This document shows, piece by piece, positions 3,480 through 11,343 of a stretch of DNA of 25,935 nt. Numbering within the stretch: the stretch's first letter is position 1; each line of letters opens with the position of its first letter. Made by a program: the position numbers and the translations under genes. Origin of the DNA: a virus (taxonomy: Duplodnaviria; Heunggongvirae; Uroviricota; Caudoviricetes); IMG/VR virus record IMGVR_UViG_2636415858_000002, positions 1-25,935 of that record; one strand, 5' to 3'. The notes beneath the pieces are model-generated. The model had not been told where the DNA came from, ran no database searches, and saw nothing but the letters and a program-made list of their open reading frames with translations.

Positions 3480-3554
<75 letters not shown>

Positions 3555-3557
3555 ATA

Positions 3558-3633
<76 letters not shown>

Positions 3634-3635
3634 GC

Positions 3636-3712
3636 TGGCCCACCACCGAGGACTCGAACCTCGCACCGTCAACTTAGAAGGTTGATGCTCTATCCGGATG
3701 AGCTAGTGGTGG
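3636..3712 (-). tRNA. tRNA-Arg (anticodon UCU), atypical C1-G72 acceptor end; phage-type
   Basis: CCACCACTAGCTCATCCGGATAGAGCATCAACCTTCTAAGTTGACGGTGCGAGGTTCGAGTCCTCGGTGGTGGGCCA; anticodon loop CTTCTAA, T-loop TTCGAGT; manual fold only. Confidence 0.55.
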
Positions 3713-3716
3713 TTGG

Positions 3717-3790
3717 TGGCCCTTGCTGGACTTGAACCAGCGACCTGGCGATTATGAGTCGCTCGCTCTGACCAACTGAGCTAAAGGGCC
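3717..3790 (-). tRNA. tRNA with CAU anticodon (Ile2/lysidine-type, ileX-like; elongator Met not excluded)
   Basis: GGCCCTTTAGCTCAGTTGGTCAGAGCGAGCGACTCATAATCGCCAGGTCGCTGGTTCAAGTCCAGCAAGGGCCACCA; resembles E. coli ileX as recalled. Confidence 0.65.
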
Positions 3791-7490: not shown

Positions 7491-7577
7491 TCCATTTATT
7501 GGATTAATTCAATATTCTCGCTGTAGAGGTATAGTGAGGTGTACTGGCAATAGCGGACACTACCATTTGTTCTTTTT

Positions 7578-8396
7578 TTAAGCAGCCATCTGATGATATT
7601 TTTCCCTGAAGGCTGCCGGGGAGATATTCCCCAGACGAGAGTGACGACGCTGACGATTGTAGAAAATCTCAATGTATTCCCGTATTACTGAGATGGCTTC
7701 ATCCCGGTTATTAAAACGATAGTGGCTCAGGCTCTCATTTTTCAGCGTTCCCCAGAAGCTTTCCATCGGAGCGTTGTCGTAACAGTGACCTTTACGCGAC
7801 ATTGATGTTTTCAGACCAGACTGCTCCTGTATGACCCGGTAATCGTATGCGCAGTACTGTGAACCTCGATCAGAGTGGTGGATTAGCCCGGCAGGTGGGC
7901 GCTGGCTCCTGAGCGCCATAAACAGGGCTTTACCTGTCAGCTCTTTTGTCATGCGCTCTCCCATGGCGTAGCCGACAATTTCGCACGTATAAACATCTTT
8001 GATGCCAGCGAGGTACAACCATCCCTCCTGTGTGGCAACATACGTCAGGTCCGCCACCCAGACCTGATTTGGTGCTGTAGGAGCGAACGTCTGGTTCAGC
8101 AGATTTGGCGCAACTGGCAGATTGTGGTTCGGGTTCGTAGTCGCTCTGAACTTGCGTTTCTGCTTACAGCGTAGCCTTAGCTCCTTACGAAGACGTGCCA
8201 GTCGGTCACGACCAACGATGATGCCATTCTCTGCCAGCTCCGTCTGGAGCCGCCGGGTTCCATATGTTTCGCGAGTGCGGATATGTGCCACCTTAATCTC
8301 CAGTTTTAGCCGCTCATCACTTTGTTTTCTGTCTGAGGGTTCATGCTGTACCCAGTTGTAATAACCGCTCCTGGATACACCAAATACCTGACACAT
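7578..8396 (-). CDS. IS600 OrfB
   Basis: 272-aa DDE transposase frame. Confidence 0.9.
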   Translation of the reverse strand: MCQVFGVSRSGYYNWVQHEPSDRKQSDERLKLEIKVAHIRTRETYGTRRLQTELAENGIIVGRDRLARLRKELRLRCKQKRKFRATTNPNHNLPVAPNLLNQTFAPTAPNQVWVADLTYVATQEGWLYLAGIKDVYTCEIVGYAMGERMTKELTGKALFMALRSQRPPAGLIHHSDRGSQYCAYDYRVIQEQSGLKTSMSRKGHCYDNAPMESFWGTLKNESLSHYRFNNRDEAISVIREYIEIFYNRQRRHSRLGNISPAAFREKYHQMAA

Positions 8397-8431
8397 CGCT
8401 TCAATGGGAAATTGTTGTCGCCATTGTTCGA

Positions 8432-8734
8432 TTAACGCGTATTTTTCAGCGACTCCTGTGCAAAATACGCTGTTGCTTTTTTTAATATATCTCGCTCAAG
8501 GCGAGCTTCATTTAACGCCTTACGCAGTTGCAGAATTTCAGATTCCAGTTCAGCCACCGTGCGGGAACCAGGAGTACCGAGCCCTTTTCTGGCGGCGGTA
8601 ACCCATTGTCCTAAAGTGCCTTCAGGAAGGGATAATCGGGAAGCGCCTTCACTGATCGAAAGTTGATTTTCAAGAACCGTTCTGACAGCTTCGGCTTTGA
8701 ACTCTTTAGAGTAACGTTGGTTTTTTCTGCTCAT
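8432..8734 (-). CDS. IS600 OrfA (100 aa)
   Basis: MSRKNQRYSKEFKAEAVRTVLENQLSISEGASRLSLPEGTLGQW...KKATAYFAQESLKNTR. Confidence 0.9.
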   Translation of the reverse strand: MSRKNQRYSKEFKAEAVRTVLENQLSISEGASRLSLPEGTLGQWVTAARKGLGTPGSRTVAELESEILQLRKALNEARLERDILKKATAYFAQESLKNTR

Positions 8735-8857
8735 TATTAGCTCCTTCTGATGCCATTCTATTTCAGGAAGGAGTGTCCGTTAAACTCAGGCTACCTCAGC
8801 CTGAGGGCAGGTGTAAAACAATAATCAAGCATGGGGTTCATATCCATAGCTCCATTT

Positions 8858-9403
8858 TTATTTTAAGGAAAGCAACTGCTCTACGGTCATGTTTTTAATT
8901 GCGCCCCGGTTTACAAGAGTCCAGCCCTGTTTTTCCAGATAAAACCGGAAAGTCTCCAGGGTACAGACCAGTGCGCCATCAGGAACGGTTTCGGTGAATT
9001 CGACATTGCCGAATTTGTCGAAGTGAACAACCAGAGTGCGACCATCACCCGGAATCATCTTGTCAGCAGGTGGGGTGTTATTCTGGCGCAGTTCGGCCTC
9101 CATGCGGTCGAACTCAGCAATGTAGGCTTCCTTGAATGTGGCGGCTTTTTTGCCCGTGAAGCCCATCACCAGGAAAACGAAGCCGTTTTTGGTGATTTGG
9201 TAGGCGTTATAAGAATTGCCGCGGTGTTCGAATTTAACCCGCGAAAAGTTGCTGGTTAAAAATAGTTCAGAACATTCGAAGGATTCTATTTTTTGAACAA
9301 CATGGTGATGCTGCTTGCCAAAAAACTCAGCAATCGAAATAGAAGTAGTGACGGCGCGACCATTTTCGATGGTTACGTCAGGGTGAGAAAGGGTAGTAGC
9401 CAT
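8858..9403 (-). CDS. rha: Rha-family phage regulatory protein
   Basis: Start MATTLSHPDVTIENGRAVTTSISIAEFFGKQHHHVVQKIESF... with GAGGA RBS; the longer track ORF (to 9697) is an in-frame non-coding extension. Confidence 0.7.
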   Translation of the reverse strand: MATTLSHPDVTIENGRAVTTSISIAEFFGKQHHHVVQKIESFECSELFLTSNFSRVKFEHRGNSYNAYQITKNGFVFLVMGFTGKKAATFKEAYIAEFDRMEAELRQNNTPPADKMIPGDGRTLVVHFDKFGNVEFTETVPDGALVCTLETFRFYLEKQGWTLVNRGAIKNMTVEQLLSLK

Positions 9404-9567
9404 AATGACATCCTCAAGTGATAAGTTAATTAACTCACCAGCAGAGGTGCTAATCTCATGGGTGGTGAGACGCACAGGGTTAGCACTACCGGTCACTCGA
9501 GAACCCGGCCAGCCTTGCGGCTGCCCCGCACGCCTCACCATAATTTGAATGTGGCTGTGCATTACGC

Positions 9568-9592
9568 ATAAAAAAACCGCTTCAGCGCGGTT
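9568..9592 (-). terminator. intrinsic terminator candidate (stem aaccgc/gcggtt, loop 6 nt, 7 U on minus strand)
   Basis: Plus strand ataaaaaaaccgcttcagcgcggtt. Confidence 0.45.
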
Positions 9593-9719
9593 ATGCGCTC
9601 GAGTAACTTTCGGGGTGCTAATCCCGGCACCCGTTTTATGAGGTGCAGGTGCACTATAATTCCACCCGTTCTGGTTTTCAATAGCTACATTCAACATTTT
9701 CTCTTTCCTTTCATCACCG

Positions 9720-9874
9720 AAGTGAATTTTGTGATGCGGTGCCTAGTGCCTCCAGGTGACGTTAACCAGTTAACAATTACAGTCGGCTTTCCCACCCAAA
9801 CCAATAAGGACTAACATGACTTTTAACTGTGCCGCGTGCGCTTAGCCGCATTCACCGCATCACAAAATTCACTT
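9720..9874. repeat. 22-bp perfect inverted repeats (aagtgaattttgtgatgcggtg / caccgcatcacaaaattcactt) flanking a 111-bp core
   Basis: Read directly: left arm 9720..9741, right arm 9853..9874; core contains near-palindrome gttaaccagttaac. Confidence 0.7.
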
Positions 9875-10141
9875 TAAAAAGGGCGGACATCAGCCAGCAA
9901 TTAAACCGATGCCGCCAACTGGTACTTCACACAGCAATGTCGTTATTTACAACCGGAAGCGCACTCCCACCATTTAAATTTCACAGACAAGACCGACTCT
10001 TTATGAATACCGGAAATGCGCCTTCGTGTTGTGCCCGGTTTTATTTCACCACCTCCGGGCTTTGGTGGCCTCGGCTATGAGGTAGCCTGAGTTTAACGGA
10101 CACTCCTTCCTGAAATAGAATGGCATCAGAAGGAGCTAATA

Positions 10142-10444
10142 ATGAGCAGAAAAAACCAACGTTACTCTAAAGAGTTCAAAGCCGAAGCTGTCAGAACGGT
10201 TCTTGAAAATCAACTTTCGATCAGTGAAGGCGCTTCCCGATTATCCCTTCCTGAAGGCACTTTAGGACAATGGGTTACCGCCGCCAGAAAAGGGCTCGGT
10301 ACTCCTGGTTCCCGCACGGTGGCTGAACTGGAATCTGAAATTCTGCAACTGCGTAAGGCGTTAAATGAAGCTCGCCTTGAGCGAGATATATTAAAAAAAG
10401 CAACAGCGTATTTTGCACAGGAGTCGCTGAAAAATACGCGTTAA
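10142..10444 (+). CDS. IS600 OrfA (100 aa)
   Basis: Identical protein to 8432..8734. Confidence 0.9.
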   Translation: MSRKNQRYSKEFKAEAVRTVLENQLSISEGASRLSLPEGTLGQWVTAARKGLGTPGSRTVAELESEILQLRKALNEARLERDILKKATAYFAQESLKNTR

Positions 10445-10479
10445 TCGAACAATGGCGACAACAATTTCCCATTGAAGCG

Positions 10480-11298
10480 ATGTGTCAGGTATTTGGTGTA
10501 TCCAGGAGCGGTTATTACAACTGGGTACAGCATGAACCCTCAGACAGAAAACAAAGTGATGAGCGGCTAAAACTGGAGATTAAGGTGGCACATATCCGCA
10601 CTCGCGAAACATATGGAACCCGGCGGCTCCAGACGGAGCTGGCAGAGAATGGCATCATCGTTGGTCGTGACCGACTGGCACGTCTTCGTAAGGAGCTAAG
10701 GCTACGCTGTAAGCAGAAACGCAAGTTCAGAGCGACTACGAACCCGAACCACAATCTGCCAGTTGCGCCAAATCTGCTGAACCAGACGTTCGCTCCTACA
10801 GCACCAAATCAGGTCTGGGTGGCGGACCTGACGTATGTTGCCACACAGGAGGGATGGTTGTACCTCGCTGGCATCAAAGATGTTTATACGTGCGAAATTG
10901 TCGGCTACGCCATGGGAGAGCGCATGACAAAAGAGCTGACAGGTAAAGCCCTGTTTATGGCGCTCAGGAGCCAGCGCCCACCTGCCGGGCTAATCCACCA
11001 CTCTGATCGAGGTTCACAGTACTGCGCATACGATTACCGGGTCATACAGGAGCAGTCTGGTCTGAAAACATCAATGTCGCGTAAAGGTCACTGTTACGAC
11101 AACGCTCCGATGGAAAGCTTCTGGGGAACGCTGAAAAATGAGAGCCTGAGCCACTATCGTTTTAATAACCGGGATGAAGCCATCTCAGTAATACGGGAAT
11201 ACATTGAGATTTTCTACAATCGTCAGCGTCGTCACTCTCGTCTGGGGAATATCTCCCCGGCAGCCTTCAGGGAAAAATATCATCAGATGGCTGCTTAA
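10480..11298 (+). CDS. IS600 OrfB
   Basis: Identical protein to 7578..8396; frame is -1 relative to orfA across the A7 run at 10393..10399. Confidence 0.9.
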   Translation: MCQVFGVSRSGYYNWVQHEPSDRKQSDERLKLEIKVAHIRTRETYGTRRLQTELAENGIIVGRDRLARLRKELRLRCKQKRKFRATTNPNHNLPVAPNLLNQTFAPTAPNQVWVADLTYVATQEGWLYLAGIKDVYTCEIVGYAMGERMTKELTGKALFMALRSQRPPAGLIHHSDRGSQYCAYDYRVIQEQSGLKTSMSRKGHCYDNAPMESFWGTLKNESLSHYRFNNRDEAISVIREYIEIFYNRQRRHSRLGNISPAAFREKYHQMAA

Positions 11299-11343
11299 AA
11301 AAAGAACAAATGGTAGTGTCCGCTATTGCCAGTACACCTCATG

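Follow-up and report, generated by a model that had tools for sequence, protein, structure and literature searches.

Analysis of the inverted repeat at positions 9720-9874 of the window (the whole stretch of viral DNA analysed here, 25,935 nt in length) revealed that this 155-bp element is the DNA for a conserved RNA domain of about 155 nt, which is encoded on the minus strand and consists of a basal stem (P1), three hairpins, a short helix and a probable pseudoknot. Within the STnc100 family (RF02076), the element forms a divergent branch that is embedded in an operon, and it carries no annotation in the E. coli records that were inspected. Taking all lines of evidence together, we consider it likely that the element represents the leader RNA of a Rac/Qin-type lambdoid early-left operon, which adopts an STnc100-like fold and whose P1 stem would be processed by RNase III, the dependence on RNase III and the end of the 72-nt DicF RNA being taken from the literature on the homologue in the Qin prophage.

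The inverted repeat

A repeat search aligned the two arms (9720-9741 and 9853-9874) at a spacing of 111 nt, and a recount bore out the exact complementarity reported in the initial annotation, with 22 of 22 positions (100%) able to pair. In a scan of the whole 25.9-kb window, this 22-bp pair was the sole inverted repeat of at least 16 nt within 400 nt, and we estimate the chance expectation for a 22-nt pair at approximately 25935 x 400 / 4^22, or roughly 6e-7. The near-palindrome gttaaccagttaac (9762-9775) described between the arms is likewise real and corresponds to the loop and 3' strand of the internal hairpin P5. We also agree that the arms are unlike IS ends, as they show no resemblance to the termini of IS600, copies of which lie at 7535-8798 and 10078-11341.

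Two further statements concerning the surroundings of the repeat needed to be revised. The minus-strand terminator placed at 9568-9592 exists (9592..9575 followed by a T-run), but it has no link to the element, because it forms the 3' end of the small RNA IsrK, which has its own promoter (9681..9653). The statement that no open reading frame of 60 aa or more is present between this terminator and the third IS600 copy was incorrect, since a 279-aa frame (minus strand, 9697..8858) and an 83-aa frame (plus strand, 9829..10080) overlap the region mechanically.

A conserved fold encoded on the minus strand

Folding of both strands yielded z scores of -4.9 and -6.8 and recovered the stem in each case; as the stem is palindromic and folds on both strands, folding energy cannot decide which of them is expressed. 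Alignments of 11 homologues and then of 30 homologues contained an almost invariant core and a variable insert of about 40 nt. RNAalifold returned the inner nine pairs of P1, the hairpin P2, a three-pair helix around the variable insert, a ten-pair P5 and the hairpin P4, and the structure used for counting comprised these helices together with the outer 13 pairs of P1 and the pseudoknot between the P5 loop and the strand CAGUUAA (Table 1).

Across the 30 homologues, 94.8% of the cells in the counted structure were paired, compared with 31-40% when the partners were slid by one to three columns. Changes on both sides were observed in 12 pairs and amounted to 41 cells versus 10.1 in shuffles, with 0 of 500 shuffles reaching 41, although the kinship among the 30 related homologues makes these shuffle statistics overstate independence. 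Within P1, Klebsiella phages exhibited changes from G-C to A-U and from U-A to C-G, while the distal stem of contig L057 had changed from A-U to G-C and from U-A to C-G. Covariation was also found in P5, in P4 and in the short helix around the insert. Among the homologues of the window element, hereafter referred to as type A, no covariation was observed in P2 and in the pseudoknot helix, both of which are invariant there.

The distribution of wobble cells was markedly asymmetric, with 88 G·U cells if the alignment is read as minus-strand RNA versus 27 A·C cells, and with 64 versus 7 in the E. coli rows. As G·U cells far outnumber A·C cells, we concluded that the minus strand is the coding strand. 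The compensatory changes in P1 would equally preserve a DNA palindrome, and the argument that is specific to RNA is the G·U asymmetry only. Of the structured small RNA considered in the initial annotation, the covariation and the G·U asymmetry thus uphold a conserved structured RNA domain on the minus strand, but not a stand-alone gene, as the domain is embedded in an operon transcript.

The unpaired positions of the core include the invariant motifs GGUGAAU, UAAGCG, GUCACC and GGAGGCAC. In the copies of phages P7 and D6 and of the Klebsiella phages, the core is conserved and the outer 13 bp of the arms are not. A covariance model built from the 30 type A homologues (R1) detected a single copy in the window, located on the minus strand.

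Table 1. Features of the locus, with positions given in coordinates of the window
Feature	Position	Strand	Evidence
Type A STnc100-like structured RNA domain (the 155-bp element)	9720..9874	-	Covariance model R1, 167.7 bits; Rfam STnc100, 30.7 bits (threshold 47); 94.8% of cells paired, 12 pairs with compensatory changes
P1 5' arm, AAGUGAAUUUUGUGAUGCGGUG	9853..9874	-	Pairs 22/22; RNase III cut between 9862 and 9861 predicted by homology with Qin
P1 3' arm, CACCGCAUCACAAAAUUCACUU	9720..9741	-	Repeat pairing and structure count
P2 hairpin, GCGGC-UAAGC-GC(A)CGC	9834..9849	-	Invariant in type A; RNAalifold and structure count
P5 hairpin, GACUGUAAUU-GUUAACU-GGUUAACGUC, holding the near-palindrome	9758..9784	-	4 pairs with compensatory changes
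Probable pseudoknot, P5 loop UUAACUG with CAGUUAA	9767-9773 with 9823-9829	-	Complementarity; covaries in STnc100 copies
P4 hairpin, CCUGG-AGGCA-CUAGG, with invariant GGAGGCAC motif	9742..9756	-	U-A to G-C compensatory change in 5/30 sequences
KilS-type (DicF-like) small RNA with its own intrinsic terminator (9913..9886), directly upstream of P1	9876..9970	-	Sub-threshold Rfam DicF match; homologue of MG1655 kilS
Sigma-70-type promoter of IsrK, TTGAAA-17-TATAGT	9653..9681	-	Promoter prediction
IsrK small RNA with a1/b1-type C4 target	9568..9646	-	Rfam RF01394 at 9646..9570, 68.5 bits (gathering score 50); weak c4-a1b1 match
C4 antisense RNA	9458..9545	-	Rfam RF01695, 78.6 bits (gathering score 45)
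rha (Phage_pRha domain), open frame reaching upstream to 9697 through C4 and IsrK	8858..9398	-	Pfam PF09669
IS600 copy parting the locus from the repressor/promoter end of the early-left operon	10078..11341	+	1264-bp inverted pair, 100% identical, with 7535-8798

Relation to STnc100

An Rfam scan over 9720-9874 returned no family at threshold and a sub-threshold match to STnc100, with 30.7 bits and an E value of 1.1e-4 in an 851-nt search (gathering score 47), in which P1, P5 and P4 aligned to the consensus. Neither the window nor the type A loci L002, L003, L004 and L009 contained an STnc100 match at the gathering threshold. Scanning viral contigs for the P4 motif GTCACCNGGAGGCACNNGGC separated the sequences into two classes. 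The first, type A, comprised 57 distinct sequences, all of them homologues of the window element, while the second, type B, comprised 39 distinct sequences, and all type B copies in the six loci scanned with Rfam scored above the STnc100 gathering score (52.6-80.7 bits). The relation was also found in the opposite direction, as model R1, built from type A only, detected the Rfam-confirmed STnc100 copies with 31-61 bits and E values of 1e-7 to 6e-17.

Comparison of the two classes revealed the same order of elements, namely a closing helix GGUG...CACC, the sequence AAU, a hairpin whose loop reads UAAGCG, a strand complementary to a later hairpin loop, GUCA, a CCnGG-AGGCA-CCnGG hairpin, and closure. 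The motifs GGUGAAU, UAAGCG and GUCACCnGGAGGCACnnGGC are common to both, and P2 of the element corresponds to the CCCCC/GGGG hairpin of STnc100 with its UAAGCG loop, although the stem sequences differ. The type B helix equivalent to the pseudoknot covaries, occurring as CCAGUUA/UAACUGG, CUGGUUA/UAACCAG, CUAGAC/GUCUAG and GUUCCAGUCA/UGACUGGGGU. This comparison was made by direct helix search and with the covariance model, as a joint MAFFT alignment set the strands of the pseudoknot out of register.

The clearest structural difference from STnc100 lies in the length of P1, with 22-28 pairs for the 48 type A sequences located behind a terminator T-run, versus 4-10 pairs in type B; the type A copies of P7, D6 and Klebsiella have 8-19 pairs. 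The two classes also differ in context. The context that characterises STnc100 is the late region of a lambdoid prophage, downstream of Q or stx, with a terminator of its own, whereas the element is located in the early-left operon between KilS/DicF and kilR/dicB and is not followed by a terminator. In the one annotated context that we examined, that of phage HK639, the STnc100-type copy is flanked by Q and the lysis genes; we noted a promoter-like TTGACC-17-TAATTT in the sequence ahead of it, and an annotated terminator comes after it. The HK639 match had also raised the idea of a put-type antiterminator RNA as in HK022, which was dropped on context alone, since the HK639 copy belongs to the late region and has a terminator on either side. 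Published work treats STnc100 and PasD as small RNAs of prophages, the latter identified by Hfq RIL-seq (bioRxiv 10.64898/2026.05.13.724894), and both have been placed near Q genes or downstream of stx2 (bioRxiv 10.64898/2026.05.13.724894; PMC12370729), with STnc100-type copies reported downstream of stx2 (PMC12370729).

As a side observation, several metagenomic viral contigs carry STnc100-type RNAs in tandem arrays, in which three or four diverged copies recur about every 253 nt (L026, 342-1038; L063, 4349-5513; L116, 3800-5227; also L038 and L117). Some of these arrays adjoin an isrI match or a tRNA.

Distribution and genomic position

On its own, the 155-bp sequence has matches in 4642 of 5426 complete E. 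coli genomes (~85%), at 10433 places (median 2, maximum 9 per genome), and in 39 phage records. No annotated feature was found beneath the 155-bp sequence among the E. coli matches listed.

The copies share a common position, with the 5' edge of the element directly following the terminator of a DicF-type small RNA and the 3' edge located approximately 20-40 nt before the next start codon. In the Rac prophage of MG1655, the element lies between the annotated ncRNA kilS (1418405-1418502) and kilR; it also occupies the dicF-dicB spacer of Qin and of phage Tritos, and it precedes kil in Rac-like and Stx phages. The copies of P7 and D6 precede tciA/terB, and the copy of a Klebsiella phage is followed by a 40-aa open reading frame and a DUF1482 gene. 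In the window, the place of the next gene, held by kilR in Rac, dicB in Qin and tciA/terB in P7/D6, is occupied by an IsrK-C4-rha cassette. As locus L011 has this cassette between the element and dicB, we regard the cassette as an insertion at the 3' edge of the element. In a RefSeq relative with 99.7% identity to the window (L001), the arrangement is uninterrupted, with DUF1391 and HTH repressor genes following upstream. Phages cease to be homologous to one another precisely where the 3' arm has its outer edge (query positions 21-24), which is the point at which the differing cargos join.

In L011, a pseudo-CDS annotated as 'DicB partial' (2769-2852) lies inside the element, and a 'DicB, incomplete' or DicB CDS covers it in the hits H97 and H99. 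These DicB annotations are probably artefacts of DicB models that are over-extended at the N-terminus.

Neighbouring RNA genes and IS600

On the minus strand, the order from 5' to 3' is a DicF-like hairpin with terminator, the element, the promoter at 9681..9653, IsrK, C4 and rha. The upstream neighbour is of the KilS type, as the Rfam DicF model (RF00039) scored 28.6 bits at 9931..9881, below its gathering score of 48, compared with 72.5 bits for the true DicF of Tritos. The segment 9970..9876 is a homologue of KilS from E. coli K-12 (b4833), with a DicF-like fold and a terminator. KilS was identified as a small RNA by Hfq RIL-seq, verified by northern blot and assigned to the 5' UTR of kilR (PMC8175672).

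Downstream of the element, IsrK and C4 both scored above their Rfam gathering scores, and the promoter and the terminator of IsrK are correctly placed. The module resembles the immI-type c4 module of P1/P7 and IsrK of Salmonella Gifsy-1 in the order of promoter, IsrK (a1/b1), C4 and antirepressor-type gene. It differs from the P1/P7 module in that the window has rha downstream rather than icd-ant, and it is separate from the inverted-repeat element. IsrK contains a 10-nt repeat, GGTGCTAATC, of which a second copy follows shortly after C4 and the complement lies within C4 (window 9446-9455, 9477-9486 and 9614-9623), an arrangement that fits the b1/b'/b2 antisense scheme of P1 immI, here upstream of rha.

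The 279-aa frame mentioned above (minus strand, 8858-9697), named 'Rha family phage regulatory protein' in L001, spans the IsrK and C4 genes. It contains matches to the Pfam 'Ash protein family' (PF10554, residues 14-105) and to Phage_pRha (PF09669, residues 117-200). It is possible that the 'Ash' domain results from translating RNA genes, or that this stretch has both roles. The start of rha is likely the ATG at 9398, after which the Phage_pRha domain begins.

The two IS600 copies at 7535-8798 and 10078-11341 (1264 bp each, 100% identical, inverted) enclose 1279 bp that hold rha, C4, IsrK, the element and KilS, with the orfA ends of IS600 facing inward. This arrangement looks like a composite transposon or the outcome of an inversion. 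The IS600 copy at 10078 takes away the operon promoter and leaves at most a possible KilS promoter; as the operon is truncated by IS600, the copy of the element in this genome may be a silent remnant. The window further contains a cluster of four tRNA genes at 3483-3790 (minus strand).

Predicted processing by RNase III

Long perfect duplexes that are cut by RNase III to release or remodel a transcript are known from the stalks of rRNA operons, the lambda N leader and the sib hairpins. The element has no sequence relation to these examples and differs from them in that its duplex closes a pseudoknotted core of about 110 nt. RNase III acts on approximately two turns (at least 20 bp) of uninterrupted duplex, and P1 of the window is Watson-Crick paired at 22 of 22 positions, while the 48 copies located behind a terminator have 22-28 pairs. 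As a duplex of 22-28 bp is a canonical substrate, the lengthened P1 would make the type A element a substrate of RNase III.

A comparison is provided by dicBF in Qin. According to the passages of PMC5069750 and PMC9438474 that cite Faubladier 1990 (Faubladier, Cam and Bouche), the 72-nt form of DicF is made by RNase III from the full-length transcript, while the 53-nt form arises by termination. In the Qin prophage of MG1655, position 1649434 is the last of the annotated DicF, and 7 nt further on, at 1649441, the P1 5' arm of the homologous element begins. The end of the 72-nt form (53+19 nt) maps to 1649453, between AAUUUUGU and GAUGUGGUG (in RNA, AAUUUUGU followed by GAUG), and therefore 13 nt into the Qin P1 5' arm, the sizes being second-hand. 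The two loci are thus alike in that the Qin spacer holds a homologue of the element with the 72-nt end in its arm. They are unlike in that the window has a KilS (Rac) type RNA upstream, the IsrK-C4-rha cassette downstream and an operon cut by IS600. The passages cited give the cleavage and the size of the product rather than a conserved fold or a relation to STnc100.

Transcriptome data point to the same spacer. Table S1 of Gordon 2017 lists position 1649470 in the dicF-dicB spacer with 0 reads in the wild type versus 26 in the rnc mutant, marked as known, and this position lies inside the Qin copy of the element. The same table lists position 1418510 of MG1655 (kilR-sieB spacer, approximately window 9978), a short distance before KilS begins, with 0 reads in the wild type versus 41 in the rnc mutant; this site may correspond, in Rac, to the upstream RNase III site from which the 190-nt DicF of Qin arises. 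The main texts of the two RNase III transcriptome papers contain nothing specific on the P1 stem.

On the basis of the second-hand DicF sizes for the Qin homologue, we infer that P1 of the element is a cut site of RNase III. In the proposed mechanism, P1 would form when RNA polymerase reads through the DicF/KilS terminator, and cleavage of P1 by RNase III would leave the small RNA with a longer, U-rich 3' end, as represented by the 72-nt DicF in Qin, while separating it from the kil/dicB message. If both strands of P1 were cut, a folded core of about 130 nt would be set free. The equivalent cut in the window would be located between 9862 and 9861. As to its role, the core might act in trans like its STnc100 relatives, or in cis as a leader.

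Alternative explanations

One alternative holds that the core is mainly a trans-acting, Hfq-associated small RNA like STnc100/PasD, which is excised by RNase III and for which cis effects are secondary. This proposal, which overlaps with our preferred explanation and differs mainly in the purpose of the RNA, appears possible to us, if doubtful. It gains from the description of STnc100 and PasD as prophage small RNAs and the recovery of PasD by Hfq RIL-seq (bioRxiv 10.64898/2026.05.13.724894), from the architecture common to type A and STnc100, with each model detecting sequences of the other class, and from the basal stem of 22-28 bp, which is what excision from a longer transcript needs. However, type A lacks a terminator of its own and is followed by a ribosome-binding site and a start codon within 20-40 nt, the literature searched contained no such RNA from the dicF-dicB or kilS-kilR spacer, and the core has no known target. 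A crude duplex test for complementarity between the element and the ftsZ leader gave no signal, and DicF, used as positive control, was likewise not significant.

A role as cis-regulatory leader, in which the fold controls read-through, mRNA stability or translation of the toxic kil/dicB genes and cleavage by RNase III is incidental, seems unlikely. The element is always found immediately 5' of a start codon, the annotated next genes are tied to the inhibition of cell division (kilR and dicB; tciA by homology only), and the invariant unpaired motifs GGUGAAU, UAAGCG, GUCACC and GGAGGCAC, the latter with a Shine-Dalgarno-like GGAGG, suggest a binding partner. Against this, the same core immediately precedes an unrelated cassette that has a promoter of its own, both in the window and in L011, the late-region STnc100 relatives precede terminators rather than genes, and the downstream ribosome-binding site is not sequestered by P1.

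With still more reserve, and as a speculation that we would not expect to hold, STnc100-type RNAs might be pseudoknotted modules with a specific partner (protein, ribosome or RNA polymerase) instead of ordinary base-pairing small RNAs. Type A would then be the RNase III-excised operon version, acting with DicF/KilS and Kil/DicB on the derepression of cryptic prophages.

Very little speaks for a site acting at the DNA level, be it paired operator half-sites, a recombination or cruciform site, or a conserved linker for module exchange, and the recombination or regulatory site named in the initial annotation is neither needed nor supported. A perfect 22-bp inverted repeat and phage homology that ends exactly at the outer edge of the 3' arm would fit such a site, but the conserved part is the asymmetric 110-nt core and not the arms, the internal helices P5 and P4 and the short helix covary as well, and the wobble pairs show a strong strand bias. 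Homologous recombination, without the help of any dedicated site, is expected to leave mosaic junctions where a conserved block ends.

A miniature inverted-repeat transposable element, also named in the initial annotation, would fit the terminal inverted repeats, the length of 155 bp and the several occurrences per genome, but is hardly conceivable, as the flanks (caccg and taaaa) contain no target-site duplication, all inspected copies are syntenic in prophage early operons or the ban-operon region of P7/D6 with none dispersed in unrelated contexts, the termini are the least conserved part in distant relatives (the outer 13 bp in P7, D6 and the Klebsiella phages), and the arms do not match the ends of IS600.

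Implications

Our preferred explanation, a leader RNA with an STnc100-like fold and a P1 stem predicted to be processed by RNase III, bears on dicBF and kilR, which are the standard examples of toxic cryptic-prophage genes and whose post-transcriptional control is still being worked out. The untranslated spacer that leads from the small RNA to the toxin gene is one conserved, complex RNA fold, related to the STnc100 RNAs of the late region. For practical purposes, the repeat should not be taken for a mobile element, and the protein annotations that lie over RNA genes, namely the 'DicB' fragments and the 'Ash' domains, are flagged herein. The P1 stem would account structurally for the RNase III-dependent form of DicF that has long been known, and the same processing is predicted for KilS in Rac. 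Overall, these results define a testable RNA family with invariant unpaired motifs.
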